This document shows, one piece after another, positions 9,562-61,100 of a stretch of 64,000 nucleotides of DNA. The position numbers were made by a program, and so were the translations under genes. Within the stretch, counting starts at the first letter, position 1. The number at the start of each line of letters is the position of its first letter. The notes beneath the pieces were generated by a model, which was not told the DNA's origin, searched no databases, and saw nothing but the letters and a program-made list of their open reading frames with translations. Source of the stretch: an uncultured Chloroflexia bacterium (GTDB taxonomy: Bacteria > Chloroflexota > Limnocylindria > QHBO01); contig CAWIXR010000001.1 in the NCBI GenBank assembly GCA_963840145.1, positions 42,327 through 106,326 on the forward strand, written 5' to 3'.

Positions 9562-9582
9562 GAGTGCTGAGAATAGCAGCGA

Positions 9583-10272: not shown

Positions 10273-10382
10273 CCGTGCGATCGTCCCACAGTTCAGCGTC
10301 GAGAGGCATCCACGCTGTCTTGCCGACAGGCGACTTCCCGTCGCCCGGGAGTTGCGACCAACGACTGCCCGTTGATGGCAGC

Positions 10383-10463
10383 TCTCCCGCAGCACGGGAC
10401 GTCACGCGCCTGATGTGGCTGCGTCGACCGTCAGGTTGCACGCATCTCCCGCAGCACGGGACG
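10383..10463. repeat. 19-bp perfect direct repeat tctcccgcagcacgggacg, two copies (10383-10401 and 10445-10463), in the ftsZ-yggS intergenic region
   Basis: Read directly. On the minus-strand RNA each copy forms the same hairpin, UCCCG-UGCUG-CGGGA. Confidence 0.6.
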
Positions 10464-10525
10464 CCGGGACCTCAGATTGCAGGCGGCAAGCCTCCGGCGG
10501 AACCTGGGCCCGGCATCGGCCTCGG

Positions 10526-11776
10526 TCAGTCGCTCTTGCGACGCAGGAAGCTCGGGATGTCGAGGTCCGACTCGTTGTAGGCCGGGCGCTGGTCGAGGCT
10601 GCCGGAGCTGACCGGCAGCGGCTTGCGCTCGGTGGGCTTGACCTCGGTCGCCTCGCGCTCCGTCGGCCGTGCGAACGGCGACTCGGTGCCGAGCTGCTCG
10701 GTCAGCGACTCCCGCTGCTCACGATCGCGCTCGATCTCGGCGAGGATCTCCCGGCTGCGCTCGTCAAGCGAGGTCTCGATCCCGATGCTCGCCTCGGTGC
10801 CGTACTTCGACGGCTTCGCCTTCTTGCTCGAGTCGAAGCCCGTGGCGATGACCGTGACCTTCACCTCGTCGCGCATCCTGTCGTCGATCACCGTGCCGAA
10901 GATGATGTTCGCCTCCGGATCGGCGGCTTCCTTGATCACCTCGGCCGCCTCGTTGACCTCGAACAGGCCGAGGTCCGAGCCACCGGTGACGTTGAAGAGG
11001 ATGCCGCGCGCGCCGGTGATGTTGACCTCCAGCAGCGGGCTCATGACGGCGGCGCGTGCCGCCTCGATGGCCCGGTTCTCACCGGTGCCGATGCCGATGC
11101 CCATCATCGAGCTGCCCGCCTCGCGCATGATCGTCTTCACGTCGGCGAAGTCGAGGTTGATGAGGCCGGGAACCGTGATCAGGTCGCTGATGCCCTGGAC
11201 GCCCTGGCGCAGGACGTCATCCACGACGCGGAACGCGTCGACGATCGAGGTCTTCTTGTCGACGACCTCGCGCAGGCGATCGTTCGGGATCGTGATCAGC
11301 GTGTCGACCTTCTCCTTGAGCAGCTCGGTGTACTGCTCGGCGACGAGCTTACGGCGCATGCCCTCGAAGCTGAACGGCTTCGTCACCACCGCGACGGTCA
11401 GCGAGCCGAGGTCCTTGGCGATCTCGGCGATGACCGGTGCGGCGCCGGATCCGGTGCCACCGCCCATGCCGGCGGTGATGAAGATCATGTCGGCGTCCTT
11501 GAGCGCCTCGTAGATCTTCTCGGAGTCCTCCTCGGCGGCGCGCTGCCCGACACCCGGATCGGCTCCGGCGCCCAGGCCGCGCGTCATCTTGTCGCCGATG
11601 CGGATCTTGTGCGGCGCGTCGCTCTGGAGCAGCGCCTGGGCATCGGTGTTCACGCTGATGAACTCGACGCCCATCATCTCGGCCCGGATCATTCGGTTGA
11701 CGGCGTTGCTCCCGCCGCCACCGACCCCGATGACCTTGATGAGTGCGAAGTTCTCGGAATCCGATCGGAGCGGCAT
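10526..11776 (-). CDS. ftsZ: cell division protein FtsZ
   Basis: GGGTGSG tubulin signature (…[23 protein letters not shown]…) and acidic C-terminal tail. SD GAGAGGA lies upstream of the ATG. Confidence 0.97.
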
Positions 11777-11866
11777 ATCGGGTGATCCTCTCGATGAGTG
11801 CTGGCAAACCCGAGGGCTCGACGGGTTTGACCGATTCTAACGATCGCCGTATGACGGCGTGGGACG

Positions 11867-11920
11867 TTTTCCACATCCGGGCACGGAGTTATCCACACTG
11901 CGGCATCTGAGCGTGGATAG
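11867..11920. promoter_or_regulatory. DnaA-box cluster in the ftsA-ftsZ spacer: TTTTCCACA (11867-11875), perfect TTATCCACA (11889-11897), and inverted weaker CTATCCACG (complement 11912-11920)
   Basis: Matches the E. coli TTWTNCACA consensus. Lies upstream of ftsZ. Confidence 0.45.
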
Positions 11921-11970
11921 ATCGGAACGGATGTCCACCGTGGCGAACGCACTCGCGATGGCACGCACTC

Positions 11971-13206
11971 CTAGCCGGGGAAGAGGTTTCGCACCCACTC
12001 GCCGACGCGCGAGAGCGGGTTCGTACCGTTGCCGGTGCCGTAGCCGATCGGCTCCTCGCCGAGGTGGTGGGCGCCCCACAGGAGGAGGCCGATCGGTGTC
12101 GCGAATGCCGGGTTGCCGATCTGGTCCATCAGCCCGCCGACGCCCTGCGGCGACCCGGCGCGCACCGGCATCTCGAGTGTGTCGCGGGCGAGGACGTCGA
12201 CGCCGCCGAGTCGCGCCCCGCCGCCGGTCAGAACGGCTCCGGCCGGCAGCATGCCCGCGTGCCCGGAGCGCTTCACCTCCTCGCGGATGAGGCTGAAGAT
12301 CTCCCCCATCCGCGCCTCGATGATCTCGGACAGCTTGCGGCGCTGGATCGTCTGCCCGGCCGCCTCGCCGAGCACCGCGACGTTGAGCAGCTCCTGGGGC
12401 TCGACCTCGGCGAGGTTGGCGGTGCCGTGCTTGATCTTGATCTCCTCGGCCAGGTTGAGCGACGTCCGCAGGCCGATCGCCACGTCGTTCGTGACGTTGA
12501 TCCCACCGACCGGCAGCACGGCGGTGTGGTAGACCGCGCCGTCGACGAAGATCGCGATGTCGGTCGTGCCGCCGCCGATATCGGCCACCAGCACGCCGAG
12601 CTCCTTCTCCGTATCGGTCAGGGTGGCCTCGGCCGCGGCCAGCGAGCTGATCACCATCTCGTCGATCTGGACGCCGGCGCCGGTGACGCACTTCGACAGG
12701 TTCTGGACCGATGTCGCCGCCCCGGCGACGATATGGGTCTCGACCTCGAGGCGCACGGCCGACATCCCGAGCGGGTCCTTGATCCCCTCCTGGCCGTCGA
12801 CGATGTAGCCGCGCGGCACGACGTGCAGGATCTCGCGGTTGGACGGCACCTGGACGGCCTTGGCCGCATCGGTCGCGCGGCCGACGTCCTCGCGGCTGAC
12901 CTCGCGCTTGTGCCCCGAGACCGCCACGACGCCGCGGGAGTTCTGCGAGCTGATGTGCGAGCCGCCGACGGCGACGAAGGCCGATGAGATCTTGTACCCG
13001 GAGAGGCGCTCGGCCTTCTCGACGCTCGAGGCGATCGAGTTCACGGTCTGGTCGATGTTGGCGACCATCCCCTTCTTCATCCCGACGGACGGCGCGATGC
13101 CATAGCCGATGACGTTGACGTCACCGGCCCGGCCGACCTCTCCGATGAGGGTCGTCACCTTCGTGGTGCCCGCGTCGATACCGACCAGGACAGCCTCGCG
13201 TTCCAA
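11971..13206 (-). CDS. ftsA: cell division protein FtsA
   Basis: Actin-fold motifs (…VGIDAGTTKV…, …DIGGGTTDIAIF…). Start proposed at the TTG preceded by GGGAGGT. The track's longer ORF begins at 13245. Confidence 0.9.
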   Translation of the reverse strand: MEREAVLVGIDAGTTKVTTLIGEVGRAGDVNVIGYGIAPSVGMKKGMVANIDQTVNSIASSVEKAERLSGYKISSAFVAVGGSHISSQNSRGVVAVSGHKREVSREDVGRATDAAKAVQVPSNREILHVVPRGYIVDGQEGIKDPLGMSAVRLEVETHIVAGAATSVQNLSKCVTGAGVQIDEMVISSLAAAEATLTDTEKELGVLVADIGGGTTDIAIFVDGAVYHTAVLPVGGINVTNDVAIGLRTSLNLAEEIKIKHGTANLAEVEPQELLNVAVLGEAAGQTIQRRKLSEIIEARMGEIFSLIREEVKRSGHAGMLPAGAVLTGGGARLGGVDVLARDTLEMPVRAGSPQGVGGLMDQIGNPAFATPIGLLLWGAHHLGEEPIGYGTGNGTNPLSRVGEWVRNLFPG

Positions 13207-13260
13207 GCTACCTCCCGCTCCGGGCGTGCTCGGCGAGCGCGCCATCGCTATGGGCCGAGC

Positions 13261-13584
13261 CTACAGGAAGTGACGCCGGATGAGGGCCACGTTCTGGAAG
13301 ATGCGCAGGCCGAACGCGAAGAGGGCGACGAGGTAGAGGTCGATGCCCAGCCGGTCGCCGACGAACGTCAGCGCCACCGCCACCAGGGTGTTGGTGATGA
13401 ACCCCGAGACGAAGATCCGGTTGTCGTAGTGGTCGTCCAGCTCGGAGCGGATGGCGCCGAGCACCGAGTCCAGGCCAGCGAGGATGGCCACCGCGGAGTA
13501 CCTCGCGAGGTCGGGGCTCACGTCCACGTTGAGCACCAGACCGAGCGCGATCCCGAGCGCAAGGCCAATCAGCGGAAGCCACAT
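13261..13584 (-). CDS. sbp: DUF1290 small basic membrane protein (Sbp/YlxX-like) between ftsQ and ftsA
   Basis: 107 aa starting MWLP…; hydrophobic. Conserved position between ftsQ and ftsA, as in Firmicutes. Confidence 0.75.
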   Translation of the reverse strand: MWLPLIGLALGIALGLVLNVDVSPDLARYSAVAILAGLDSVLGAIRSELDDHYDNRIFVSGFITNTLVAVALTFVGDRLGIDLYLVALFAFGLRIFQNVALIRRHFL

Positions 13585-13643
13585 CTGGGACGGTCCCGAT
13601 ACGAGGGTCTCGGCGCGTGATCGACGGCAGCCCGGCCATCACG

Positions 13644-14561
13644 TCATCCCTTGGCACGGAAATATACCTTTCCGGGGTTGCGCACATCGACCCAACCGAC
13701 CTCGTTCTCGGCGTGTGTGGCGAAGAGCGTGCGGACCGCGGTGATCTGCCGCTCGAGGCGCTCGTCGGCCTCGCCGGACGTCTCGCGCGGGTCGATGCCG
13801 TAGACGCCGAGCGCAACCTCCCAGGTCTGCTCGGTCGCGAACAGCCGGAAGCCGAACTCGTCGTCGAGCTGGACGGCCAGGCGCGTCTCGTCCGAACCGA
13901 GCAGGGCCGGGTCGAGGGCGGCGACGTCGAGGGCGGTCCGCAGCAGCGGCTCGGGGATCACGTCGCCCACCGACAGGAGGCTTGCGCTTGACCGATGGTC
14001 CCCGATCCTCGGCAGCTCCGTGAGGGCAGCGTCGGTTTCGCTGGCCCGTGGCTCGCGGGCGAAGATCGTGCCGTCGGCCGCGCCGAGGTACCGCCAGTCC
14101 GGGGTCACCCACAGGAACGCGGCGCTGTGCTCCACGACGGTCACCGACAGCCCACCGCCGATGCCCGCCGAGACCGATGCGCTCTCGACCGCCGGCAGAC
14201 GCTCGATCTCCGCTGCCAGCGCATCGGTGTCGACGGCCAGGAGGTTCATGCCGCGGTGCTCCGCGAGAGCCTGCCGCAGGTCGCGGTCGGGGGTGTAGCG
14301 CTCGCCCGCCCACGCCACGTCGGTGACGAGCAGCCACGGTCCGTACAGCAGCGCCACCAGCACCGCGGCGGCCGCGACCGCGCCGACCGCGCCGATCAGG
14401 CGGCGGATCGACGGCATGCGGGCGCCGACTCGACGCCGGAACGAGATGCCAGGCTGGCGCGCCATGCGGCCCGAGCCCCTCGACACGGCACGCGGCCGCG
14501 AGCGGCCGGTTGCCCGCGCGGCCCGCTGCTTCGTGACGCGTGGCTGCGGCTTCAGCTTCAT
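13644..14561 (-). CDS. ftsQ: cell division protein FtsQ/DivIB (POTRA domain)
   Basis: Basic N-terminus, one TM segment (AVGAVAAAAVLVALLYGPWLLV), then periplasmic POTRA-like region. In dcw-cluster position. Confidence 0.8.
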   Translation of the reverse strand: MKLKPQPRVTKQRAARATGRSRPRAVSRGSGRMARQPGISFRRRVGARMPSIRRLIGAVGAVAAAAVLVALLYGPWLLVTDVAWAGERYTPDRDLRQALAEHRGMNLLAVDTDALAAEIERLPAVESASVSAGIGGGLSVTVVEHSAAFLWVTPDWRYLGAADGTIFAREPRASETDAALTELPRIGDHRSSASLLSVGDVIPEPLLRTALDVAALDPALLGSDETRLAVQLDDEFGFRLFATEQTWEVALGVYGIDPRETSGEADERLERQITAVRTLFATHAENEVGWVDVRNPGKVYFRAKG

Positions 14562-41648: not shown

Positions 41649-41720
41649 GCGAGCAAGACGGTGGACAAGTCCGAGTATAGACGGATGTCTTTGCACAACG
41701 ACATCGACATTTCTCCACGT

Positions 41721-41729
41721 TGTGGATAA
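41721..41729 (-). promoter_or_regulatory. Perfect DnaA box (TTATCCACA on the minus strand), 80 bp upstream of parA
   Basis: Read directly on the plus strand as tgtggataa. Confidence 0.4.
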
Positions 41730-41807
41730 CCCGGATGCCCGTTTCGGGGTCGAGCGCCTATCATCGGTTTCGTTCCTCCCGCCCCTGTCGCACGGAAGGT
41801 GTTGCGT

Positions 41808-42574
41808 TGACCAAGGTCATATCGATCGCGAATCAGAAGGGCGGTGTGGGCAAGACCACCTGCTCCATCAACCTGGGCGGCGCATTGGCGGAACGCGGTT
41901 ACCGCGTCCTCTGCGTCGACATGGATCCGCAGGCAAATCTCACCGTCGGCCTGGGCGTTTCCCTCTCGGACGTGCGCGTGTCGATGGCCGACGTCCTCTC
42001 CGACGATCGCGTTGGTCTTGACGAGATCGTCCGCGAGACCGAGACGCAGGGTCTGTGGGTCGCACCCGCAACGCTCGAGCTCGCGTCGACCGAGGTCGAG
42101 CTGTTCACCGCCATCGGCCGCGAGATGGTGCTTCGCGACGCGCTGGACGGCTGGGCGGACCGCCAATTCGACGTCGTCATCATCGACTGCCCGCCGACGC
42201 TCGGTCTGCTGACCATCAACTCGCTGGTGGCGTCGAACCGCGTGATCATCCCGGTGCAGACGCAGTACTACGCGATCAAGGGCCTGACCGCGCTCATCAA
42301 GGTCATCAACACGATCAAGATCAAGCTGAACCACGACCTCGAGGTGCTCGGCCTGCTGCCGACCTTCTTCGACGGCCGCACGGTGCTCGCCCGCGAGATG
42401 CTCGCCAACCTCAAGCAGCTCGGCGATCACCGGGTCTTCAACACGATGATCAAGCAGACGGTGAAGCTCGGCGAGGCGCCGCTCACCGGCAAGCCGGTCA
42501 CCGAGTACGCGACGAACTCATCGGCCGCCCGCGCATTCCGTGACCTGGCACAGGAGGTGATCGAGCTTGGGTAG
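41808..42574 (+). CDS. parA: chromosome partitioning ATPase ParA/Soj
   Basis: Starts at the TTG after GGAAGGTG; KGGVGKTT deviant Walker A. Confidence 0.9.
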
Positions 42575-43565
42575 CAAGGGTCCCGCATTCCGGGAGAACA
42601 TCCACCGACTCTTCGACGAGGCCCAGGCGACCGACCTCGCCCCGGGCATCGTGTCGCTCATCGAGTCACGCGGCACACACGCGCAGATCCGCGAGGTGCC
42701 GGTCAGCAAGATCCTGCCGAACCCGGCGCAGCCGCGGCTCTCCTACGACGAGGAATCGCTGACCGAGCTGGCCGACTCGATCAGAGAGCACGGCGTTCTC
42801 CAGCCGATCCTCGTGCGGCCCAGCGGCTCGAAGTTCGAGCTCATCGCCGGGGAGCGGCGCTGGCGCGCGTCGACAATGGCCGAGCGCGAGACGATCCCCG
42901 CAATCGTCGCCGAGTTCGACGACCAGACCGCGCTCGAGGTCAGCATCATCGAGAACCTCCAGCGCGAGGACGTCTCGCCGCTCGAGGAGGCGGTGATGTT
43001 CCGCAAGATGACCGAGACATTCGGCTATTCGCTGCGCCAGCTGGCGCAGAAGGTCGGCAAGGACAAGGGGTACATCGAGAACCGGCTGCGCCTTACCGAT
43101 GCGCCTGCCGACGTCCGCGAGCTCGTGTCCGTGCGCAAGGACACGATCAGCCACGCCTACGAGCTGATGAAGATCGGCGACGAGCGAAAGCGTCGACGGC
43201 TCGAGAAGCGGATCATCGCCGGCGAACTGTCGCTGGCCAAGCTACGGCTGATCACCGGCACGACCGGCCATCCCGAGGAAGAGAACGGTCACGCCGAGCA
43301 CAAGCCGCGACGACGGGCGAAGACCGCGGCCGGGCGCGCGGCCGAGGTGCGGGCCGCGGACGATGCGCTGATGGGCGCTCGCTCGAAGCTCGCCGAGGGC
43401 ATCGATGACCTCGTCGACATCCTCCGCCAGCCGGAGCTCATGGAGCAGATTCCCGAGGTCAACCGGGCGAACTTCGCGAAGCACCTCACGATCACGAAGC
43501 TCAAGATCGAGAACGCGATCGCGATCATCCGCGCCGGGACGCCCGCATCAGCCGAGGGCGAGTGA
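42567..43565 (+). CDS. parB: chromosome partitioning protein ParB/Spo0J
   Basis: ParB N-terminal domain (…LQPILVRPSGSKFELIAGERRWRAS…) and HTH region. Start overlaps the parA stop. Confidence 0.9.
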   Translation: MGSKGPAFRENIHRLFDEAQATDLAPGIVSLIESRGTHAQIREVPVSKILPNPAQPRLSYDEESLTELADSIREHGVLQPILVRPSGSKFELIAGERRWRASTMAERETIPAIVAEFDDQTALEVSIIENLQREDVSPLEEAVMFRKMTETFGYSLRQLAQKVGKDKGYIENRLRLTDAPADVRELVSVRKDTISHAYELMKIGDERKRRRLEKRIIAGELSLAKLRLITGTTGHPEEENGHAEHKPRRRAKTAAGRAAEVRAADDALMGARSKLAEGIDDLVDILRQPELMEQIPEVNRANFAKHLTITKLKIENAIAIIRAGTPASAEGE

Positions 43566-46384: not shown

Positions 46385-46753
46385 ACGCGCGCGAACCGAC
46401 GATCAGGCGTGACCGTGGGTCGGCCGGCCGATGATACCGTCGCCTCCGAGGACCGGTCAAAACGGAGAATGTCCCGTGGTGCCCTCGCGCACTCGCGTCT
46501 GAGTCCTATTGACGCGCGTCCTGTATCGGTTCAACAATTACTGGTCCATAAAGGCTAGGGACTTCCGACCCGAACGTCCCATGATTCCTCTGATCCGAGA
46601 CGGAGGAGAAGAGCCTAGCTGCCGGCTCGCGGCGGGTTCTCTCATCGATCTCAGTGCCACTGTCCGTGCCCATTCGCGGTGCCACACCGCCGGGGTGTCA
46701 ACCGGCAGGTTGGAGCGGCTGTCGCTCCGTGCAACGCGAAGGGGGGTGATGGG

Positions 46754-48274
46754 ATGTCCGTCAGGGTAGACGAAGCCCCACAAGAGGGCATCACCGACGA
46801 GGTCGCGACGCCGCTCTCCGGCGAGGCGCGGGGGCGCGCGTCTCCCAGATGGTTCGGGGCTGCGCGCAGCACCCGCACGAGGATCCTGGCCTCCTACGTC
46901 GTCCTTCTCGCTCTATCCGTCATCATCGGCCTGGTCGGTCTCCGCGAGGTCCTGCTGATCAGCCTCAACGACCGCGTCCAGGAGGACCTCGAGCAGGAGG
47001 TCACCGAGCTCGACCGGCTCGCGACCGAAGGCAACGACCCGCAGACCGGCCAGCCCTTCGACAGCCTGGAGCGCGTCTTCGAGGTCTTCCTCTTCCGCAA
47101 CCTGCCTGGCAACGGTGAGGCACTGCTGACGTTCGTCGAGGGCCAGCAAACCGATCGCAACGTCGAGCAGTTCCCGCTCGAGACCTTTCCTGCGGAGCGG
47201 CTGGCCGAGTGGGAAAGCCTGAGCGAGCCCAGCGGTGGCATCAGCCGCGTCGTCGTCGACAGCTACGGCACCGAGATCGGCGACGTCCACTACCACGCGG
47301 CGCGCGTCCGGCTCGGCGACGAGGTCGGCTCGTTCGTCGTCGCCATCCTCCCGGCCAGCGAGCTCGTCGTCATCGAGGAGCTTCAGACCTATGGTCTGCT
47401 GGCAGCGCTCGGCGTCCTCCTCATCAGCTCGATCGCGGCCTACTTCCTGGCTGGGCGGGTCCTGCGGCCGGTGCAGGAGCTGACCGATACCGCACGCTCG
47501 ATCTCCCAGTCCGACCTGACCCGGCGGATCAGCGCGAGCGGGGGTGACGAGGCCTCCGAGATGGCGCGAAGCTTCAACGCGATGCTCGACCGGCTCGAGG
47601 CCGTGATGCGCAGCCAGCGCGAGTTCGTCCACGACGCCAGCCATGAGCTGCGCGACCCGCTCACGATCATCGGCGGCCACCTCGAGCTCCTCAGCGAGGA
47701 GCCGGAGGAACGCGACGCGACGATCGCGCTGGTCGTCGATGAGCTCGACCGAATGGCCCGCATCGTCGACGACCTCCAGCTCCTGGCCGATGCCCAGCAG
47801 CCCGACTTCCTGCGCCCGACGTGGATCGACATGGAGCCGTTCACCAACGAGTTGATCGCCAAGGCCGCGGCGATGGCGCCCCGGACGTGGGAGCTGGACG
47901 GCGCAGCCGATGCCGAGGCGTTCGTCGACCGCCACCGCCTCACCGAGGCAGTCATGAACCTGGTCCACAACGCCGTGCAGCACACCGTCGGGCACGACAC
48001 GATCGCCATCGGCTCGTCGGTGGCCGGCGGCGAGATCCGGCTCTGGGTCCGCGACACCGGCTTCGGCATTGCCGAGTCCGACCAGGCCCGGGTCTTCGAT
48101 CGGTTCCGGCGCGGGCGCAGCGCCCACCGGCGCTACCGCGGCAGCGGCCTCGGCCTGGCGATCGTGCGGACGATCGCCGAGTCCCACAATGGCCACATCG
48201 AGCTGATCAGCAAGCTCGGCGAGGGGTCGACGTTCACGATGGTGCTGCCGGCCCGGGCGGGAGGCGCGAGGTGA
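46754..48274 (+). CDS. two-component sensor histidine kinase (TM sensor, HAMP, HisKA, HATPase_c)
   Basis: MSVRVDEAPQEG… preceded by GAAGGGGGGTGAT. H-box HELRDPLT; N/G-box region …RDTGFGIAESDQARVFDRF…GSGLGLAIV…. Confidence 0.88.
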   Translation: MSVRVDEAPQEGITDEVATPLSGEARGRASPRWFGAARSTRTRILASYVVLLALSVIIGLVGLREVLLISLNDRVQEDLEQEVTELDRLATEGNDPQTGQPFDSLERVFEVFLFRNLPGNGEALLTFVEGQQTDRNVEQFPLETFPAERLAEWESLSEPSGGISRVVVDSYGTEIGDVHYHAARVRLGDEVGSFVVAILPASELVVIEELQTYGLLAALGVLLISSIAAYFLAGRVLRPVQELTDTARSISQSDLTRRISASGGDEASEMARSFNAMLDRLEAVMRSQREFVHDASHELRDPLTIIGGHLELLSEEPEERDATIALVVDELDRMARIVDDLQLLADAQQPDFLRPTWIDMEPFTNELIAKAAAMAPRTWELDGAADAEAFVDRHRLTEAVMNLVHNAVQHTVGHDTIAIGSSVAGGEIRLWVRDTGFGIAESDQARVFDRFRRGRSAHRRYRGSGLGLAIVRTIAESHNGHIELISKLGEGSTFTMVLPARAGGAR

Positions 48275-48930
48275 CGCGCATCCTGATCGCCGAGGACGAC
48301 GGCCTGATCAGCTCGTTCATCGACAAGGGCCTGCGGGCCAGCGGCTTCTCGACGCTGATCGCCAGCGACGGCGAGGAGGCCGAGCAGTACGGGATGACCG
48401 ACGAGTTCGACCTCATCATCCTGGACATGGGCCTCCCCGAGCGCGACGGCCTCCAGGTCCTGAAGTCGCTGCGCGCGCGCGGTAAGCAGATGCCGATCCT
48501 CATCCTCACCGGGCGGCCCGAGCGCGACGTCGTGACCTGCCTCGACGCCGGCGCCGACGACTACATGCGCAAGCCCTTCCGTTTCGAGGAGCTGCTTGCC
48601 CGCGTCCGTACCAGGCTGCGCGACCGCGGCTCGCGAGAGTCGTCGGCCCTGACGGTCGGACAGGTGCACCTCGACCTTCGGACCCGCCGCGTGACGATCG
48701 ACGACCGCGTGGTCGACCTGACCGCCCGCGAGTTCAGCCTGCTCGAGACGCTCCTCCGGCATCCGGACCAGGTTCTGAGCCGGGAGCAGCTGCTATCCCA
48801 GGTGTGGGGCTACTTCTTCGACCCCACCTCGAACCTCGTCAACGTTTACGTCAACGCGCTGCGGCGGAAGCTCGGCGCCGACGTCATCGAGACGGTCCGC
48901 GGCGCGGGGTATCGGCTGCCGAAGCGCTGA
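48271..48930 (+). CDS. OmpR/PhoB-family response regulator
   Basis: VTRILIAEDDGLI…DLIILDMGLPERDG… receiver domain, then a winged-helix domain (…LTAREFSLLETLL…GYRL). GTG start overlaps the HK TGA. Confidence 0.92.
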   Translation: MTRILIAEDDGLISSFIDKGLRASGFSTLIASDGEEAEQYGMTDEFDLIILDMGLPERDGLQVLKSLRARGKQMPILILTGRPERDVVTCLDAGADDYMRKPFRFEELLARVRTRLRDRGSRESSALTVGQVHLDLRTRRVTIDDRVVDLTAREFSLLETLLRHPDQVLSREQLLSQVWGYFFDPTSNLVNVYVNALRRKLGADVIETVRGAGYRLPKR

Positions 48931-49118
48931 TCGGTCCGATCGCGGACGGTGCGCGGACGCACCGTGCCGGAGTTCAATTGTAAGGACGTTCTCACGAAAC
49001 CCTTACCGCTGACTGATGGCGCCCTTACCGAATCCTGATCGCTGACCACGAATGTCAGCGTGTGCTGAAATCATCCTCACCCCGACCCGTCCAGCTGCCG
49101 GACGTCACGCGCATCGGC

Positions 49119-52100
49119 GTGATCGTCCGGGAGCTCCTCCGCCGTGCAGGAACGTCCCCTACCGCGGCACTGGAGGTCGGGGCTGATTCGAGCTGCCTGC
49201 TTTCCGATTGCGGGCGCCCGCTGACTTCGGCTGACGACAGCTACTGCAGCCGAGCCTGTCTGCGGCGCGCGGGTCGCATCGCGCAGGCCGCCGAGCTGGC
49301 GGGACAGAGCTGCGCCAGGGACGGCTGCGAGAACCTCTTCGACGCCCGCACGAGCGGTCACCGCTTCTGCAGCAGCGCGTGTGGGATCGAGGCCCGCCGG
49401 ACCGATCGGGCACCATGGACCCACGGCCTGACGGCCGCCCCCACTCGCCTTCCCGCCAACATCCCAGCCCCCGGCCTCGTCGCCGGGGGCGTTGCACGTC
49501 TCGGCCGCGGCGCGACGCAGGTCGGTGCCGCGATCGCCGCGGGGACGGCCGCCATTGCGCGGCCCATCCGATCGGGCGTCTCGCGCGCCGGCACCGTCCT
49601 CGTTGCGGCCACGCGTCCGGTCCGGGCCGGGGTCAGTCGCGCACTGGGCCCGATTGCCCGGCGCCTCGAGCCGGTGGTGAGCCCGGTGCGCCGGTGGCTC
49701 GGAGCCCTGTACGCCAGGACGGCGCCGGCCAGGGCCGTCATCGGCCGACCACTCAGCCTTGCATGGCGCCGCACACCGCGGCGCGTTCGTGTGCCTGGCG
49801 CCCTTCTCGTCGCGACCGCATCGGTCATGGTGCTCGTGCTCTCCTTCGCGGCCGCGTCGGACTTCACCGTCAACGACACGAGCGACCGCGTCGACGCGGT
49901 CGTCGGCAATGGCGTCTGCGACGTCAACACCAGCACGTCCGGCAGCCAGTGCACCCTGCGCGCCGCCATCCAGGAGGCGAATGCGCACCCCGGCCACGAC
50001 AAGATCACGATCGAGCCGGGCCTCTACCAGCTCGCGATCCCGCCGATCAACGAGAACGCCGCGAACGTCGGCGACTTCGAGCTCCTCGACACGGTGACCA
50101 TCGAGAAGCAATGGTTCACCCTCGGCGACGTCATCATCGACGGCGGCAATCCCCTGCCGAGCGCGCCGGTCATCGCCCGCGGCATCGACCGCCTCTTCGA
50201 GGTCCACCCCGGCGCCGGTGACGTCACCATGCGCGACGTCACCCTCCAGAACGGCTTCAGCCCCGAAGAGGGCGGCGCGATCCAGAACTGGTCGCTCGGC
50301 AAGCTGACCCTCGACGGCGTGACAGTCCGCGACAACTTCGCCGAGAAGGCCGGCGGCGGCCTCAACCATGGCGACCTCAACGACTACGAGTGGGCCACCG
50401 ATCCGCCGAACCTCGACCTGCTGCCCCACGGGCGCGTCGAGGTCATCGACTCGTTCTTCACCGGCAACGGCTCGGCCGGCGGCAGCGGTGCCGCCATCAA
50501 CAACGTGTCGGGCGGCACGATCACGATCACCGGCAGCACGTTCACCCTGAACCCCGGCGCGATCATGCCGGACCCGCTCGACCCTGAGGAGTTCCTCCTC
50601 GTCGACCCGGCCGACTACCCGCTCGACGCCAGCACGATCGCCAACCAGGCCCGCTGGGAGAAGGTCGGCACGCTGCGGATCAGCAACTCGACGATCTCGC
50701 TGAACGCGGCCGAGGGCAACGGCGCCGGCATCCTCAACGAGGGCGACAGCATCGTCGAGCTCGCGAACGTCGTCCTGACCCAGAACCGCACCGGCGCCAG
50801 CGGCGGCGGCCTCTACACCGAGGGCGGCAAGGTCACGATCACCGGCGGCACGGTCTCAAAGAACCAGGCGGCGAACGGCGGCGGCCTCTACGGCGGCGGC
50901 CATGTCTCGCAGTTCGGCCTCCGCGGGACGTTCACGTTGTCGGGCGTCCAGGTCGCCGACAATATCGCCGAGAACGGCGGCGGCCTGTACAACGACGGCG
51001 ACGCCCACATGGTCGTGACCAACACGACCTTCGCGCGCAACCACTCGTCCGACCACGGCGGCGCGCTCGTCAGCGATGGCCGCGCCAGCCTTCTGCTCAG
51101 CCACGTCACGGTCACGGCCAACACCTCGAACGGCGAGGGCGGCGGCATCTGGCTGCACAGCGAGCGGATGCAGACGATCGCCGACTCGACGGTCACGCTC
51201 AACAGGGCGGGCGTCCCGGTCGTCGAGGAGGACGGCACGCTGAGCGACGACATCGCCGGCGGTGGCGGCATCCACACCGATGGCGGCCCGACGACGATCC
51301 TGCGCACCCTCATCGACAGCAACGAGGCGAATGATGAGGGCGGCGGACTCAGCCTCAACAACGCGGGCGACCTCCTGATCGCGGACAGCACGATCTCGAA
51401 CAACCGGGCATTCGACGGCGGCGGCATGGAGAACAGCGCTCGGGAGGTGACCTTCGAGCGGCTCACGGTCACCGGCAACCGTGCGGCCTCGGCCGGCGGC
51501 GGCATCCACAACACCTCGAGCGGCGAGTTCTTCATCCTCGACACGACGGTCCGCGGCAACACCGCCCAGATCGGCGGCGGGCTTGCCAACGCGCCGGACA
51601 ACAGGATCACGATCCGCGGCTCGCTCTTCCTCAATAACACGGCGCGCCTGGGGACGCCCGGCGAGGACGGCGAGCTGCCCGAGGAGGCCGGCTACGGCGG
51701 CGGCATCATGAGCTACGCCGACGGCGACTCGCTCATCGAGAACACCACGATCTCCGGCAACAAGGCCGCGGTGGCCGGCGGCGGCCTGTTCCACGACGCC
51801 GACGGCGAGCTGCGCATCGTGCACACCACGGTCTGGCGCAACTCGGCGCCGGCCGGCGGCGGCATCGGCGTCAAGGAATCCGACTTCGTGCCCGACATCC
51901 CGCCGAAGACGAACGAGGCCGTCGTCCTGAAGAACTCGATCGTCGGCGGCAGCATCCGCGGCGGCAACTGCGACTGGTACATCCGGTCGGAGGGCGGCAA
52001 CCTCGAGAGTGGCGGCGTCAACACCTGCTTCCTGGCCGTCACCCACGAGACGGCGCAGAGCCCGATTGAGCTCGGCGTCCGCGACCGCCGCGGCGACCCG

Positions 52101-55100
52101 AAGCTGCTGGCCATCGCCGACAACGGCGGGCCGACCCTGACCCACGCGCTCCTGTACGGCAGCCTCGCCATCGACTCGAGCCCCGAGCCGTGCTCGGTCG
52201 ACGACCAGCGCGGCGTCGAGCGCCCCGCGCCGAACGACACGGTCCATGACGAGATGAACCGATGCGACGCCGGCGCCTACGAGTTCGTCGGTCCGCCGCC
52301 GCCGTACGACAACGTCGCCCCCGAGACGATCTTCAACTACCCCGAGGACGGTCCTGTCCAGGATTCCCTCGAGACGATGGCGTTCACCTTCCGCGGCGAG
52401 GATCCCGCGGTCGACGCGAACAACGTCCCGGTCAACTTCACCTCGCCCGATGAGCTGAACTTCGAGTGCCGCTTCCTCGAGATCGAGCTGACCGAGGAGC
52501 CCGAGCCCGTTCCGCCGTGGGAGCCGACGCCGCCCGAGGAGATGTGGAACGGCTGCTCGAGCCCGTGGTCCGTGCCGCTGACCGAGGAAGGTCTCTTCCG
52601 CCTGGAGATCCGGGCGATCGACCGCGCCGACAACATGGACGAGACGCCGGTCAGCGTGATCATCAGCGACGTCGGCCTGGAGCCGCCCGACACCCAGATC
52701 GTCGAGGCGCCCGGCCTGACCCCCGGCACCGTCGTGCCGCCCGCTCCGGCGGAGACGCCGCAGACCAACAGCCGCGCCGCACTGTTCAGCTTCCGCGCGG
52801 TGAGCGACTTCACCCCGTCGCAGTTCGCCGAGTACGAGTGCCGCCTCGACAGCCGCGACCCGGAGCAGTGGCTCGAATGCTTCAACCCCGTGATGTACTC
52901 CGACCTGACCACGGGCCTGCACACCTTCGAGGTGCGCGCCATCGGCACCGAGCTCGGCGGCCCCGATCCGACGCCGGCCCGGTACACCTGGCGCGTCGGC
53001 CCGGATCCGGCCGGCGGAGTGCCGTTCAGCTGCGATGAGGCGAACATCACCCTGACGCCCAACGCCGACGGCTGGGCGGACCAGGTCAACCCGCTCGAGA
53101 ACTACAAGTTCGAGACGGAGCTCGACGTCCGGTCCGAGGCCAATGTGCCCGAGTCCGGCCCGACCGAGCACCGGAACGCGCGGGCCTTCATCCGCTTCGC
53201 GCTCCAGGCTGACACCGACTGCGAGCTGCAGTCGGCCACGCTGCGCATGTTCTCCGAGGGCCACACCGAGGGACGAACCCTCGTCGCGGTTCCGCTCGCC
53301 GGGCCGTTCAAGGAGAGCACGCTCACCTGGGTCAGCGCGCCGCTCGAGGTCCCGGGCGCCGTCCCGGCGCCGGTCCCCGCGGGCGAGGGCTATCGCGACT
53401 TCGACGTCACCGACCACGTGAGGGACATCCTCGCCGGCACACTGGTGAACCATGGCTGGCTCATCCGCGACGCGGTGGAGTCCGATCCCGAGGGCGGCGA
53501 CCAGACCTTCGCGTCACGCGAGCTGCCACAGGATCCGCCGGAGATCACCCTGCCTGAGCTCGAGCTGCGCTTCGCGCCGGTCGCAAGCCCGCCGCCGGCC
53601 GAGCGTGACCAGACGCTCGTCGACAAGTACGTCGAGTGCGGTGAGGTCATCACCGAGAGCGTTCGGCTCCTGGGCGACGTGACCGGCTGCCTCACCGAGG
53701 GCATCGCCATCGGCGCCCCGAACATCATCCTCGACCTGAACGGCAAGATCGTCTCGAGCGGCTTCATCCTTGAGCCGGGCGAGGAGGACAACCTCACGCC
53801 GGGCATCCGCAGCGGATACCCGAACGTCGAGATCCGCAACGGCACCGTCACGAACTTCGGCTACGGCATCCTGCTCGGTCCTGGGTCGGTGCACAGCGAA
53901 GTCCACCACATGACCCTGACCCGCAACGCCCTGACCGGCCTGCAGCTGTTCGACGCCGATAACGGGCGCCTCGGCAACACGGTCCGCGACAGCACGTTCG
54001 ACTCGAACGGCGAGACGGGCCTGCAGCTGATGAGCGGCACCGAGGGCAGCCTCATCGAGAACAACTTCTTCATCAGCAACGGGATGTCGATCCACCTCTT
54101 CGACTCCCACCGCAACACGATCCGCAACAACACGATCAGCGGGATCATCCTCGACCCGACCCTCGACTCCGACGCCGGAATCGTGGTCGAGAACGGCTCG
54201 CGCGATAACGTCCTGATCGACAACGACGTCAGCGAAACCGGTGACGCCGGCATTGTCATCCACCAGGGCTCGCACGGGAACACCGTCGTCGGCGGCATCC
54301 TCGTCCGGAACGGCGACGCCGGCGTGATCGTCCAGGATTCGGACCGCATCACGGTCGACGGCGTCCTCGCCCACCAGCAGTCGGACGGCGGCGTCGTGCT
54401 GTCGAACTCGAGCAACAGCGTCGTCAAGAACAGCGACCTGGGCTACAACCCCTCCGGCGTCGACGCATCGGGCGTGAACAACCTGCTCGTCTACAACAAC
54501 GACGTGTCGCACTCGCTCCAGGCCGGCATCGAGCTCGGCGAGGGTGTGAACATGGTCGTCACCTGCAACACGGCCAACCTGAGCGGCGGCAGCGGCATCT
54601 CGATCGAGGGCGCCACGTTCGACTCGCTGGGCGTCGCCGTCGGCGGCGCCCTGGTCACGGGCAACACGGCCAACGAGAACGCCGAGTCCGGCCTCTCGAT
54701 CGCCGTCGGCCGCCACCGGGTCGGTGGTCCGGTCATCTGCCCGGGTGGCGAGGTCATCGGCAACAACGCGAACAACAACGCCGGCTACGGCATCGACGCC
54801 GGCGAGGACCCCGTTCCGGGCGAGCCGCTCGACCCGAACCGCAACATCGACGGCGGCGGGAACCGCGCGAGCGGCAACCACGCCGACGTCGGCGTGGCCG
54901 TCGGCCTGCCGGACGCCATCCAGTGCGTGGGCGTGGTCTGCGCCGCCGGCGACGACGTGCCGATGACGCCTGAGGACCTCACCGCGCCCGAGACGATCCT
55001 TCTCGCCGGCCCGGTCGGCTCGATCCTTCCGCTGCCCGCGGGCGTTTCCACGAACAGCGAGCGCGCCGTCTTCGAGTTCACCGGCAACGACGGCCCGCAG

Positions 55101-58100
55101 GGCGACGCCCCCACCGCGCTCATCTTCGAGTGCCGCGTGGACGCGCCGCCGGATCCGGTGATCATCGAGGAGCCTGAGCTCGAGCCGCCCGATCCGGGCG
55201 AGCCGCCGGAGCTGCCCGAGCCGCCCGAGGGCGAGTTCTGGGTCGCGTGCTCCAGCCCGCTCACCTACCTGGCCCTCGAGTCCTCGATGACGCACACCTT
55301 CGAGGTGCGAGCCGTCGACCAGGCCGGGAACTTCGACCTGACCCCGATCACGTACACGTGGACGATCGAGGCTGGCGTCGAGGAGGACGGCAGCGAGGAG
55401 TGCCTGCTCGGCGAGCCGATCAGCGACACGTGCTCCGTCCTCGGGCAGGCGCCCGACACGCGGATCAGCGCCGCCCCGGGCGAGCTGATCACCGATGAGG
55501 CCGGCACCCGCTACGACACCACGAACCGCTCGGCCACGTTCCGGTTCACCGGCAGCGACAACGTCACCGCCGGGTACAACCTGGCCTACGAGTGCCGCAC
55601 CTGGTACAGCGAGCTCAACGACGCGCTCACGCCGGCGGACATCCCCTCCGACGTCGACTTCGTCCCGTGCGAGTCGCCGAAGCAGTACATCGAGCTTCCA
55701 TACGGCGGCCACATCTTCGAAGTGCGCGCGACCGATCGCGGCGGCAACACCGACGCGGAGCCTGCCTGGCACGCCTGGTGGGTCCATCCCCCGCCGCCCG
55801 ACACGACGCCTCCGGACACGGAGATCCAGTCGGGTCCCGATCCGATCACCGTGCGGACGAACGCCACGTTCACCTTCACGGGAAGCGACAACCAGACGCC
55901 GACCGGCGACCTGCTCTTCGAGTGCCGCCTCGACGGCGCGATGGATCCGCTCGCCCCGGCCGTGCCGCTATGGACCCTGTGCACCTCCGGTCACGTCGTC
56001 AACGGCCTCACCCCGGGCGATCACGTCCTGCAGGTCCGCGCCAAGGACCAGAGCGGCAACGTGGACGACGTCAACGGGCTGGTCGACGCCACCGTGACCC
56101 CTGGGGAGATGGATCCCAGCGACGGCGTGCCCGCCGCCTACACCTGGACGGTCGGCCCGACGCCGATCGCAAGGACGGTCTTCTGCGGCCAGAAGATCAC
56201 GATCAGCATCGTGCTCAACAACAACCTGGGCGATTGCATCGGCCATGGCCTGATCATCGGTGCCAACAACATCACGATCGACCTGAACGGCAAGACGATC
56301 GACGGCAAGTCGATCGGTGCGGCCATCCTGAACAACGGCTACGACTCGGTCACGATCCGCAACGGCCGACTCACCGACTTCGACTACGGCGTCATGCTCA
56401 ACAACGGCGCCCAGAACAACATCGTCGAGGGAATCACCGTCGACCTCGCCCAGGAAGCCGGCATCAGCCTCGGCCACGGCACCTTCCCGGAGGATCCGAC
56501 ACTGGCACCCAGTGAGCCCGTGCCCGGATACCAGTCCGGCGTCGACAACACGATCCTGCGTGGCAACACCATCGTCTCGAACAAGCGCGGCGTGTGGCTG
56601 GTGAACGGTGCCCGCGACAACGTCGTGCGCGGCAACCTCATCGGCGCCACGAGTGGCCCGGCCGTGTTCATCGAGCGCGCCACGGCCACCCTCGTCGAGA
56701 GCAACGACATCCAGGTCTCCAGCGACGCCGGCGTCCTGCTTGAGGGCGCGACCAACAACGTCATCCGCAACAACACGATCGCCGAGGCCGGCACCGGCGT
56801 CGAGATCAGCGACACGACGTCCGGGCCGACGGTCGGCATCGAGTCGAGCGACAACGTCGTCCAGGGCAACCACATCAGCGAGACGAGCGGTGCCGCCGTG
56901 GATATCGTCCACTCGCGCCGCAACCAGATCCTCGACAACGTCGGCACGCTGACGAACTCCGACGCGATCGAGCTGTTCTACGGGTTCGACAACGTGATCA
57001 AGGGCAACGACGTCCGTGGCAACAAGGGCGGCATCAGCCTGAAGAACTCGACCGGCAACACGATCGAGGCCAACAACACCAGCAACTCGGATGGGACGGG
57101 AATCTCGCTCGAGTCGCAGTCGTTCGCCAACGTGATCGTCAACAACATCTCGAACAACAACGTCGGCGGCGGCATCTACATCGGTGACGAGACGCCGGCC
57201 GGCCAGGGAACCCTCGTCCAAGGCAACACCACGAACGGGAACAAGGAAGCCGGCATCAAGGCAACGAAGCCGGCCCACATCTTCAAGGACAACGTCTCGT
57301 TCGACAACGACAGCTGGGGCATCTACGTCGGCGACCCGTCGAACGGGCGCGCCAACATCGACGGCGGCGGCAACCGCGCGCAGGGCAACCTCGGCCCACT
57401 CGGCATCGACCTGAAGCCGCAGCAGTGCTACAACATCACCTGCCTCGGCGGCGAGGGCGGCGGCGACGGGATCCCGCCGAACACGAACATCCTCGAGGGA
57501 CCGATCCAGCCTGTCAGCAGCGAGAGCCTCGCCACCTTCCGCTTCAGCGGCGCCGACAACGCCAGCCCGGTTACCTTCGAGTGCCGCTTTGACAGCGCCC
57601 TCGAGACCGCCTGGGAGGCCTGCGCCAGCCCGAAGACCTACACGAACCTCGTCAACGACACGTACACCTTCGAGGTGCGCGCCGTCGACTTCTCCGGCAA
57701 CACCGATGAGACGCCCGCCAGCTACACGTTCGCCGTGGAGCTTGGCGACTTCGAGGCCTTCATCGACGCGAGCCCGGACAGGGCGACCGTCGAGACGAGC
57801 GCGACCTTCGAGTTCTCGTCCAACCGCCAGAGCGGTGTCACCTTCCAGTGCCTGCTCGTCGACCCGCTGACCGTCCTCACGACGGCGACGTGGGCTGCAG
57901 CGCCTGTCTGCACCTCACCGATCAGCTACACCGATCTCGCGGTCGGCGGCCACGAGTTCTGGCTGCGCGCGACCGGTCCGTCGGACGCCTACAGCACGAA
58001 GATGTACGCCTGGACCATCGGTCCTGCGCCCGTCCCGGCCGAGGTCTCGTGCGGCCAGGTCCTCATGCAGAGCACGCGCGTGCTCAACGACCTCGTCGAC

Positions 58101-61100
58101 TGCGGCGGCTACGCCCTGATCGTCGGCGCGCCCGGCATCACGATCGACCTCGACGGGCACGTCCTCGACGGCCTCGGGCTCGACGCCGGCGTCCTGAACA
58201 ACGGGCATGACGACGTCACGATCAAGAACGGGCTCATCACCCAGTTCCTGTACGGCGTCCAGCTCAACGCGGGCACCGCGCGCAACGTCGTGCACTCGCT
58301 GCGGCTCGAGGCGAACGAGGAGGCGGCGATCGCCCTCTCCGACGCCGACCAGGGCGCCGACGGCAACCTGATCCGCGACAACTCGATCGTCGGCAACGAG
58401 GTCGGCATCGCCCTCTACACCGGGACGCGGCACGCCGTGATCCGCAACAACGACCTGGGCGCCAACCAGGGCGAGGGCGGCATCTATCTCGAGTTCGCCA
58501 GCGACAACCTCATCGAGCACAACGAGATCTCGATGAGCGGCGGCGGCGGCATCTTCATGATCGGCGGCGGCAACAACGTCGTCACCGACAACGTGCTCAA
58601 GGAGAACGGCGGCTACGGGATCGTGGCCGGCGAGGAGCTGCTGCCCTCCAACAACAACCTCATCCAGCGCAACGAGGTCGAGGGCGGCCAGGGCGGCGTC
58701 CTCGTCGGCGGCAACAACAACACCGTCATCAACAACTCGATCACCGGCGTGACGGGCCCCGGCGTCGCCGTCGAGCTCGCCAACAACACCCTGGTCAAGG
58801 GCAACGACTTCATGGGCAGCGCCGGCGGCGTCTCGGTCGGCGAGGCGAACGGCACGACGATCGTCGCCAACAACGCCAGCGGCACGCTGGGCGCGGGCAT
58901 CGAGATCGGCGAGCTGTCGCTCGACACGATCGTCCGCGACAACACGGCCAGCGGTAACGGCGGCGCCGGCATCGAGATCACCGAGTCCTCCGTCCTCGAT
59001 CGCGGCTCGCTCGTCGAGAACAACACGGCCGACGCCAACGGCGGCGACGGCATCTACGTCGAGGGCGCCGGTCACCGCGTCGTGAACAACGAGGCCAAGC
59101 TGAACGGCGGATGGGGCATCTACTCCGTCGGCGCCGTCGATGGCGGAGGCAACCTCGCCGCGGGCAACATGGAGCCCGAGCAGTGCTTCGGCATCGTCTG
59201 CGAGCTCGGCACGGTCCCCGGCGCTCCGGAGACCTGGATCATCGCCAAGCCGGCCGACTGGAACGCGGGCGTCGAGGGCGTCCAGAGCCCGAGCCGCAAC
59301 GTCAGCTTCACGTACATGGCCTCGGACGACTTCTCGCCGATCACCGACATCGTCTTCGAGTGCCGTCTCGACAACGACAACCCGCTCGCGTGGGAGGACT
59401 GCGAGTACCCCGCCGAGTACCTGAACCTCGGTCCGGGCACCCACAAGTTCGAGGTCCGCGCGATCGACATGCTGGGCCAGGGCCTGGCCGATCCCACGCC
59501 GGCCGTGTTCGAGTGGGCGTACGAGCCGCTGCCGAGCGGCGTCGCGCCCGAGGTGACGATCGACGTCACCCCGGTCGACACCGACCCGCTGAAGCCCGGC
59601 GTGCAGACGTGGATGGTCGACTCGATCTTCACCTTCTCCGCGAACGAGCCCGACGTCACCTTCCAGTGCAAGGTCGACGCGAACGGCTACGAGCCGTGCG
59701 GGTTCGAGGCGGCGCAGTTCATGAACCAGGGCGCCTTCGAGTGGGGCCTGAACGAGACCGAGGTCGGGAACCACACCTTCTTCGTCCGCGCCATCGACTT
59801 CGAGGGCAACGTCAGCGCGCCTGAGACCTTCGTCTGGGAGCTGCTCGGCGTCAACGTCGTCTTCACGAGCGGCCCGGGCTTCACCCCGGCCACCGGCGGC
59901 CCGGCGGGCGACCCCGCCACCGGCGGCATGACCTCCAGCACCTCGGCGATGATCGAGTTCGAGGCCAACGTCGGCGACGCGACCTTCTGGTGCCGGTTCG
60001 ACAGCATCGATCCGGGCGGGTACTTCCCGTGCGAGTCGCCGTTCCTGGCCGGGCCGGCCTTCGCCGCCCAGACGGAGTTCCCGGAGCCGCTGCTGGCCGG
60101 CGACCACACCCTCGAGGTGTACGGCGAGTCCGAGCTCTACGGCTCGGCGGCCGAGCTCGAGCCCGCGATCTACGAGTGGGAGGTCGTCGACCCGGTTGAC
60201 GGCAGCCCGCCCAACACGACGATCGAGCGCGCCCCGGCGGGCCAGGTCACCAACCCGGACAACACGCTGAGCTCCACGACGTTCGAGTTCGTCGGTCTCG
60301 ACGACCTCACGCCGGACTTCCTGCTCCTGTTCGAGTGCCAGGTCACCAACGGCACCGAGCTGCCCAACGAGCTCGAGTGGATCGAGTGCACGAGCCCGTT
60401 CAACCTGCTCGACGTCTACTCGTACGCCGATCCGCAGATGGCAATCGGCGTGGAGCACACCTTCTGGGTGCGCGCCGTCGATACCTTCGAGCCGGAGTTC
60501 CCGGATCCGACGCAGCCCGAGTTCGAGGGCAACCCCGATCCGACCCCGGACTTCCACACCTGGACGCCGATCGCCGACACGCGCGGCCCGATCACCACGA
60601 TCTCCGCCGGACCGGCGAATGGCGCCACCGTCGGTGAGGAGGTCGAGCCGTACATGTTCTTCGGCCTCGACGACGCGACCCCGCTGCACCTGCTCACGTT
60701 CGAGTGCCAGGCCTACGTCACGGCGGCCGGCCCCGACCCGCAGGGCTGGGAGACGTGCGAGACCACGGTCGACAGCGGCTGGGAGCTCAGCGTGCCTGAG
60801 CCGGGCGCCTACACCGTCGCGATCCGCGCCACCGACATGGCCAACAACGTGGGCATCGCCGCCACGCGACTCGTGACCGTCGCGGCCGCCCCCGTCGTGA
60901 CCTTCATCACCGGCCCGGCCGGCCGGCTCGATCCGGTCTCCGGCGAGCCCGACGGCGCCAGCCAGACCGAGAACGCGGTCTTCACCTTCACCTCAGACCA
61001 GCCCGGCTCGACGTTCGAGTGCTCCTTCGAGGGCGACTTCCTGCCCTGCGGCGGCCTCAGCGACCCGGCGACGGGCGCGGCATGGGTCGTCGAGACCGGC

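Follow-up and report, generated by a model that had tools for sequence, protein, structure and literature searches.

The stretch of DNA analysed here, hereafter the window, comprises 64,000 nucleotides of contig CAWIXR010000001.1 from an uncultured Chloroflexia bacterium, and it carries in series genes for a sensor histidine kinase (HK), an OmpR-family response regulator (RR) and a giant protein whose open reading frame (ORF) runs past the window's end (Table 1). By its domain matches the giant is an extracytoplasmic protein of the beta-helix and carbohydrate-binding type, and ahead of the hydrophobic segment that introduces its secreted part the same reading frame holds two Cys4 motifs and a basic linker. 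On balance we judge it probable that the giant ORF opens with ~800 nt coding for a cytoplasmic extension, specific to the lineage, ahead of a segment that in orthologues is an ordinary Sec signal peptide. That this long form is really translated we hold to be likely to about the same degree.

Following a TGA at 49014-49016, frame 0 remains open for 4994 codons, up to the window end, and across 49017-49862 it is the only one of the six frames free of stops, each of the others holding 2 to 6. The in-frame canonical starts ahead of the hydrophobic segment are the GTG codons at 49062, 49119, 49674, 49677, 49686 and 49791, and the earliest in-frame ATG (49827) lies within that segment. Read from GTG 49062, the product would consist of an unconserved tail of ~44 amino acids, two fingers, the linker, the hydrophobic segment with its AAS/DF site (the slash marks the predicted cut) and a beta-helix and Ig-like passenger of more than 4,700 amino acids. 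An earlier reading of the same letters, made from the sequence only, had listed the Cys motifs, these start codons and a G+C content at third codon positions (GC3) of ~80%, all of which are present as described; the coordinate at which it began the region, 49209, falls within the first finger. No Rfam family matched in 48800-50000, and Tandem Repeats Finder found no repeats in the linker.

Table 1. Features of the giant gene, its 5' region and the adjoining two-component system (window coordinates).
Feature	Coordinates	Strand	Basis and remarks
Sensor histidine kinase	46679..48274	+	Pfam (HAMP, HisKA, HATPase_c); first gene of the HK-RR-giant trio
OmpR-family response regulator	48271..48930	+	Pfam (Response_reg, Trans_reg_C); start overlaps the kinase stop codon
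Conserved non-coding block	48978..49046	.	~95% identical to relative L001 (5157-5225), flanks ~55-60%
GTG 49062, best candidate start of the long form	49062..49064	+	No Shine-Dalgarno sequence; position and frame kept in L001 (GTG 5241)
Zinc finger 1 (predicted)	49194..49259	+	C-x4-C-x11-C-x3-C (CLLSDCGRPLTSADDSYCSRAC), then helix
Zinc finger 2 (predicted)	49311..49382	+	C-x4-C-x13-C-x3-C (CARDGCENLFDARTSGHRFCSSAC), then helix
Basic Ala/Arg/Gly/Pro/Val-rich linker	49413..49790	+	126 amino acids, 21 K+R, 1 D+E, pI 12
Shine-Dalgarno-like GGTGGTGAG and GTG 49686, candidate internal start of a short precursor	49673..49688	+	Anti-Shine-Dalgarno duplex energy -11.0
Hydrophobic segment and AAS/DF site	49791..49862	+	Hydropathy; aligns with the signal peptides of 6 orthologues
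Mature giant extracytoplasmic protein (predicted)	49863..64000	+	Runs past window end; CSLREA-like N-terminus, PMP/NosD/Beta_helix blocks, choice-of-anchor Q, CBM96, Ig-like repeats

Profile comparison identifies the two Cys4 motifs as real protein domains, treble-clef fingers of the CGNR/FCS/DUF2116 kind. An independent finger profile, built from 11 database segments of unrelated proteins in whose choice the window's closest relative (L001, described below) had no part, scored the window's frame-0 ORF at 63.6 bits and the finger-frame ORF of L001 at 54.6 bits, the best other six-frame piece of the window and six loci reaching 9.5 bits. The invariant columns of a 13-sequence finger alignment are the eight Cys and nothing else, and by this comparison the zinc ligands are under selection. 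Two claims of the sequence-only reading gain from these results: that the region ahead of the hydrophobic segment is coding, which agrees with a frame 0 that alone is stop-free and with the 63.6-bit score of the finger pair, and that it holds two zinc-binding modules, which agrees with that score and with the invariance of the eight Cys (zinc binding itself being predicted). Its description of the modules as YacG-like ribbons does not survive, neither a Pfam YacG match nor a close structural match having been found.

An exhaustive HMMER search of 1.84 billion representative proteins with 49119-49424 as query (E<=1e-3) matched 20 proteins, the top two at E 1.3e-11 and 7e-11, and all 20 are soluble proteins with tandem copies of a C-x2-4-C...[RK][FY]CSxxC module. 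Some of these finger arrays end in HNH or endonuclease VII domains, and the Pfam names given to their modules are zf-CGNR, DUF2116 ('probable treble clef') or zf-FCS. PHROG 1271, an HNH endonuclease family, matches residues 41-115 (E 3e-7), a span that includes finger 2. Given the 13-sequence alignment minus the L001 row, AlphaFold2 reached a mean predicted local distance difference test (pLDDT) score of 80.6 and modelled, twice over, a hairpin knuckle followed by a helix that begins at the third Cys; the modelled geometry is that of a treble clef, as in the CGNR finger of Jann_2411. Run on the whole N-terminus as a single sequence it gave an unusable model (pLDDT 45). Pfam, NCBIfam and PADLOC returned no significant family for the 267-amino-acid N-terminus, and a comparison of the fingers with phage records (tblastn) and viral contigs found no close relative.

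Orthologues of the giant gene show where the extension ends phylogenetically. A one-genome-per-species scan yielded two loci, one in a long-read metagenome-assembled genome (MAG; L001), whose giant body is 85% identical to that of the window, and one in Jiangella aurantiaca (L002), with a body 73% identical. L001 carries both fingers (CARDGCGSAFEPSRSHQRFCSRAC and CIRDACGVVFMPRGAGHRYCSATC), a recognisable linker and a near-identical signal peptide. In J. aurantiaca the RR gene is followed by a spacer of ~200 nt, a GTG preceded by a Shine-Dalgarno (SD) sequence and a plain signal peptide (…RRRRRHLIIAVLATALVLAG…AAAS), and the alignment with the window runs from 49863 onward only. The metagenomic orthologues P0023, P0024, P0025, P0031 and P0043 (36-72% identity to the query) have a K/R-rich signal peptide directly before the motif xFxVNDTxD, loci L003 to L006 likewise have an ordinary signal peptide before it, and no Cys4 motif occurs in any of them. 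At least ten more distant orthologues, J. aurantiaca among them, are without the extension; the n-regions of orthologues reach about 45 amino acids, that of P0043 being only ~4. Because the distant orthologues start at a plain signal peptide with which the window's hydrophobic segment aligns, the extension is best read as a lineage-specific addition. Confined to the window and L001, it is by this comparison coding sequence upstream of a signal peptide and not a leader. Comparison with orthologues, which the sequence-only reading had proposed as the check on whether the Cys-rich part is translated, thus gives a divided answer: at <=80% identity there is a plain signal peptide without ribbons, and L001 (85%) keeps both ribbons at the amino-acid level.

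The HK-RR-giant trio is syntenic in L001, L004 and L005, and the L001 regulator is 95% identical to that of the window; in J. aurantiaca only the RR gene adjoins the giant gene, the best kinase match lying on the opposite strand at 41% identity. L001, deposited as a MAG of an uncultured Chloroflexia bacterium, matches the window at 87-95% identity in HK, RR and giant gene, and the next relative is Jiangella, an actinomycetote (Actinomycetota); the taxonomic label or the contig binning of L001 may be wrong, or the locus may have moved horizontally. In L004 (3830-4300) and L005 (2100-2700), 480-640 nt devoid of Cys motifs separate the RR stop from the signal peptide, and one frame of this region is kept between the two (…RGARRFGMQRA…LPPGVGRLLPM.DGRRHPL…). 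A long 5' region in front of the signal peptide may recur across this giant-gene family, its content differing by lineage.

Between the window and L001 the extension is about 55-63% identical in DNA, close to what the unconstrained spacer behind the RR stop shows, and what has been kept is visible in the protein. In the finger frame the finger region reaches a local BLOSUM score of 163, versus 24-70 in all other frame pairings, and the linker scores 206 in the giant's frame versus <=161 in other frames. In a frame-blind MAFFT alignment of 49194-49790 the first, second and third codon positions are identical at 0.63/0.65/0.52 (p=0.009), so that the third position is the least conserved in the extension. 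Insertions and deletions of 1+5, 6, 21, 6 and 3 nt preserve the frame, with the exception of one 7-nt gap (6+1) near 49460. The zinc ligands and the family-typical residues have been kept despite weak constraint, which argues that the fingers must be translated.

In another reading two genes are present, one for a small zinc-finger protein and a separate one for the giant. As assembled, L001 has its fingers offset by +2 from the frame of the linker, signal peptide and giant body, and its HK and RR genes show no frameshift, both of which speak for two genes. However, the L001 giant gene shifts frame at least 8 more times in 8.5 kb relative to the window, in all at least 9 times over 5533-13855, at each of the six junctions examined through a single-base indel inside highly conserved coding DNA, and at about one error per kb the intact 2.25 kb of HK and RR are unremarkable (P~0.1). 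Otherwise the finger frame of L001 would extend beyond the signal peptide through ~170 out-of-frame, Arg-rich codons, and the conservation of the L001 linker follows the giant's frame and not that of the fingers. In the window, moreover, the 15-kb ORF is intact and fingers and giant share one frame with no stop between them, so any ribosome translating the fingers would continue into the giant protein. The frame change in L001 looks, from its sequence context, like an assembly (consensus) error, and because the other frameshifts show the pattern of such errors it is poor evidence for two genes; we dropped that reading of L001 and give two genes hardly any credence. Loci L003 to L006, all from one European Nucleotide Archive (ENA) sample, are frameshifted like L001, and public-database gene calls for these giant genes are fragments of 720 amino acids or less.

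If the fingers belong to the giant, translation would have to begin upstream of them, and the two starts able to include finger 1 are GTG 49062 and GTG 49119. A -10-like hexamer lies 6 nt upstream of the former (GAATGT in the window and GATCGT in L001, both carrying A as second and T as sixth base), an arrangement that we infer would fit a leaderless mRNA. GTG 49119 has no counterpart in L001, which has an ATG six codons ahead of finger 1. GTG 49791, one of the candidates put forward in the sequence-only reading, is ruled out, being GTC in L001, where the basic RRTPRRVRVP just upstream is conserved. The start codon nonetheless remains as ambiguous as that reading had it, the two upstream candidates being without SD and the strong SD standing at GTG 49686.

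This last codon is the centre of the most serious alternative, in which the giant is an ordinary pre-protein begun at GTG 49686, its n-region long and basic, and the finger and linker sequence is a 5' leader, the decaying remnant of a captured gene that is not usefully translated. The SD at GTG 49686 is the only strong one in the region, its duplex energy falling in the 1st percentile for the region and being comparable to the -11.7 of the RR start and the -10.4 found where the J. aurantiaca orthologue starts. L001 keeps the CTCGAGCCGGTGG block, with GTG and GGTGG at this site and an energy of -6.9. A precursor begun here would have an n-region of ~37 amino acids, like those of the orthologues, which outside the window and L001 all have plain signal peptides.

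Several further observations weigh against a translated extension, some of which also favour this alternative. The extension is carried by two sequences, one of them an error-prone MAG whose assembly places the fingers out of frame. The duplex energies at 49062 (-1.4) and 49119 (-1.5) compare poorly with the regional mean of -3.5. The extension, queried alone and as the window-L001 alignment, had no match in word-indexed searches of 5.8 billion proteins, a scan of JGI metagenomes with its alignment gave none either, and the HMMER search described above gave only soluble finger arrays. Composition is atypical of this genome's genes: over 49209-49862, GC3 is 0.83 versus 0.95 in the gene body, and the G+C content at second positions (GC2) is unusually high, 0.69 versus 0.48. 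Constraint is weak overall, the first two codon positions being slightly more conserved than the third; the linker stretch 49413-49673 is not significant when taken alone (p=0.34), and over 49062-49193 the comparison of window and L001 gives no sign of coding.

Against the remnant stands the expectation that neutral sequence at ~55-60% nucleotide identity would lose the eight Cys, their spacing and the family residues, whereas both lineages keep more than 54 bits of finger similarity; the indels preserve frame, and frame 0 alone is stop-free. A start at GTG 49686 is, in addition, compatible with the use of two starts and would exclude the long form only if the fingers are non-functional. We consider the leader interpretation unlikely, the least so of the alternatives weighed here, and find it plausible that a short ordinary precursor from 49686 is made alongside the long form.

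The codon statistics shift sharply at the signal peptide, from GC3 of 0.81-0.84 and GC2 of 0.67-0.72 over 49062-49790 to GC3 of 0.95 and GC2 of 0.48 over 49863-64000. Such a shift fits an extension of recent or foreign origin, or one that is weakly selected, and together with the weak constraint it suggests a recent addition.

The sole hydrophobic segment, ALLVATASVMVLVLSFAAA (Kyte-Doolittle score 2.38), has the layout of a Sec signal peptide for signal peptidase I, with the basic n-region RRTPRRVRVP, the h-region GALLVATASVMVLVLSF and the small residues of AAS/DF, and by alignment it is homologous to the cleavable signal peptide of the orthologues. The linker ahead of it has a net charge of about +20 and the mature N-terminus behind it is acidic. 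The strongly basic character of the linker (21 K+R versus 1 D+E) agrees with the cytoplasmic location that the sequence-only reading had assigned to this region. The signal peptide stands at the extreme N-terminus if translation starts at GTG 49686 and not in the long form from 49062 or 49119, in which, we infer, the hydrophobic segment would act as an internal signal-anchor.

In the pathway that we propose for the long form, translation would initiate without SD at GTG 49062 (or 49119), possibly on a leaderless mRNA, and the basic N-terminus would remain in the cytoplasm while the hydrophobic segment, serving as an internal signal-anchor like that of RodZ-type proteins, engages Sec, giving an N-in/C-out insertion. 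Signal peptidase I is predicted still to cut after the conserved AAS, probably freeing the passenger, and such cleavage would leave behind a membrane-held stub of ~27-28 kDa made up of the zinc fingers, the basic linker and the TM segment. The ordinary short precursor would probably be supplied as well, from the SD-preceded GTG 49686. By analogy with CGNR fingers and nuclease-associated arrays, the fingers would most likely bind nucleic acid or a partner protein. One extension of this scheme is a 'functional long signal peptide', in which the ~27-kDa stub persists in the membrane, or is freed by intramembrane proteolysis, and then binds nucleic acid or a partner protein, coupling export of the giant to gene expression or to the place where its own mRNA is localised. 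A comparable role is played in eukaryotic cells by the stable signal peptides of certain retroviral and arenaviral glycoproteins. For the present locus we regard the idea as speculative and rather improbable.

The same topology would also suit a membrane-tethered signalling protein, an anti-sigma factor or ToxR-like regulator with the fingers as output and the giant region as sensor, and it was to anti-sigma factors and signalling receptors that the sequence-only reading had likened the protein. The predicted layout of an N-in zinc finger, a single transmembrane (TM) helix and a large extracytoplasmic region fits such a protein, DNA binding has been proposed for CGNR fingers (PMC2954205), related fingers occur in HNH and endonuclease VII nucleases, and transmembrane regulators are widespread (PMC10269533). 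The likeness fades on closer comparison: the translation contains no HxxxCxxC motif and gives no match to zf-HC2 or another anti-sigma Pfam family, no sigma gene lies among the neighbours (ParA/ParB, MOSC, PNPOx, HK, RR), the TM segment corresponds to a cleavable signal peptide conserved in orthologues that function without fingers, and an adhesin-like beta-helix/CBM passenger of this size would be an atypical sensor. A ToxR-like reading, for which finger DNA binding would be taken by analogy and the N-in topology is a prediction, has little support, and we think a signalling protein very improbable.

Upstream of the candidate starts, the non-coding block of Table 1 holds repeats spaced about 21-22 bp, namely GTAAGG (48980) and CCTTAC (49002, 49023). 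J. aurantiaca (~5724-5790 of its locus) keeps part of it, TAAGGA…TCAC…CTCTTA, and L004 (~3870-3915) and L005 have two direct GATAAGrGCTT repeats, 22 bp apart. Judged from these repeats and their conservation, the block is probably a binding site of the adjacent OmpR-type regulator together with the giant gene's putative promoter. A scan of the region for sigma-70 promoters and terminators returned 0 sites. The promoter-like TGACCA-17-TGAAAT that had been pointed out at 49043-49071 is present, but it fails the sigma-70 scan because of a G at position 2 of the -10 hexamer, is not conserved in L001 and overlaps GTG 49062.

The body of the giant gives matches to Beta_helix (184.8 bits), NosD and Chlam_PMP, all right-handed beta-helix repeats, and to the choice-of-anchor Q domain (NF041518; 62 bits versus a cut-off of 25). 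The CSLREA-like motif (TIGR04214) that follows the signal peptide scores 21.1 bits (E 2e-4), below its cut-off of 25, and several orthologues are named CSLREA domain-containing by their sources. From 41.7 to 48.9 kb the neighbours are ParA, ParB, a gene of unknown function, MOSC, a PNPOx-like gene, HK and RR. The RR start, GTG 48271, has a strong SD, and this SD and the overlap with the HK stop at 48271-48274 suggest translational coupling; the stop-to-stop ORF that contains the RR gene (47821-48930) is far longer than the gene itself. The ParA (AAA_31/CbiA) and ParB (ParB_N, HTH_ParB) pair lies at 41681-43565, ~5 kb upstream of the two-component system, which may place the giant gene close to the partition and origin region of the chromosome.

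Should the long form be produced, it would show that a folded zinc-finger domain in the cytoplasm can precede a Sec signal peptide on a very large secreted protein, an architecture of fingers, Sec signal peptide and giant found in none of the 1.84 billion representative proteins searched. The locus would then offer a natural test case for the targeting of giant proteins by internal signal-anchors, for cutting by signal peptidase and for the function of a leftover stub. There is a consequence for annotation too, as homology-guided gene callers would start this gene ~620 nt late (49686 versus 49062) and lose the domain, and longest-ORF callers keep it. With two close relatives and no known phenotype, its present importance is modest.

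Each part of the predicted protein is of a known kind (treble-clef finger, Sec signal peptide, CSLREA/beta-helix giant), and their combination was not found in the databases searched. The fingers resemble the CGNR zinc finger (PF11706; 3H0N, Jann_2411), which in Jann_2411 has the form C-x4-C-x15-C-x3-C with Cys147/152/168/172 (PMC2954205): with it and the related FCS/DUF2116 treble-clef fingers they share the C-x4-C knuckle, the C-x3-C at the N-terminus of a helix, an aromatic residue just ahead of the third Cys and a helix that bears basic residues. Six of the 11 closest homologous segments pass as zf-CGNR, so that the relation of the window's fingers to that family is transitive only, and the finger profile matched 3h0n at E 0.026 and the TOX4 finger at 6e-4. 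Unlike CGNR proteins, the window's fingers give no Pfam zf-CGNR match even at E<=1 (gathering threshold 24 bits) and have no CGNR signature, the sequence from the fourth Cys on reading C-LRRAGR and C-GIEARR; they are tandem and N-terminal rather than C-terminal to an ABATE domain, none having been found, and are fused to a TM segment and a secreted giant protein. The best sequence relatives are the tandem [FY]CSxxC arrays (E 1.3e-11 for the top protein, 3e-7 for PHROG 1271), with the same module and spacing, although those proteins are soluble, have 3 to 12 fingers and no TM segment, and are probably mobile-element proteins.

The remainder of the protein compares closely with the CSLREA/choice-of-anchor Q/beta-helix surface proteins of Jiangella aurantiaca and Actinomycetota MAGs, which are 65-87% identical in the body and have signal peptide and mature N-terminus at the same position, but which begin with an ordinary signal peptide and have no finger and linker extension. 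A cytoplasmic N-domain ahead of a targeting helix is also found in RodZ-type proteins and in long N-extended signal peptides, such as the ESPR of autotransporters and the vertebrate and viral 'NtraC' type. RodZ has its TM segment over 100 residues in from the N-terminus, and SecA targets it cotranslationally (PMC5674894); long signal peptides can act after targeting (PMC2447879, PMC2649029). The signal-peptide extensions known from bacteria are about 20-50 amino acids long and unfolded, whereas that of the window would comprise ~245 amino acids and, according to the structural model, folded zinc fingers.

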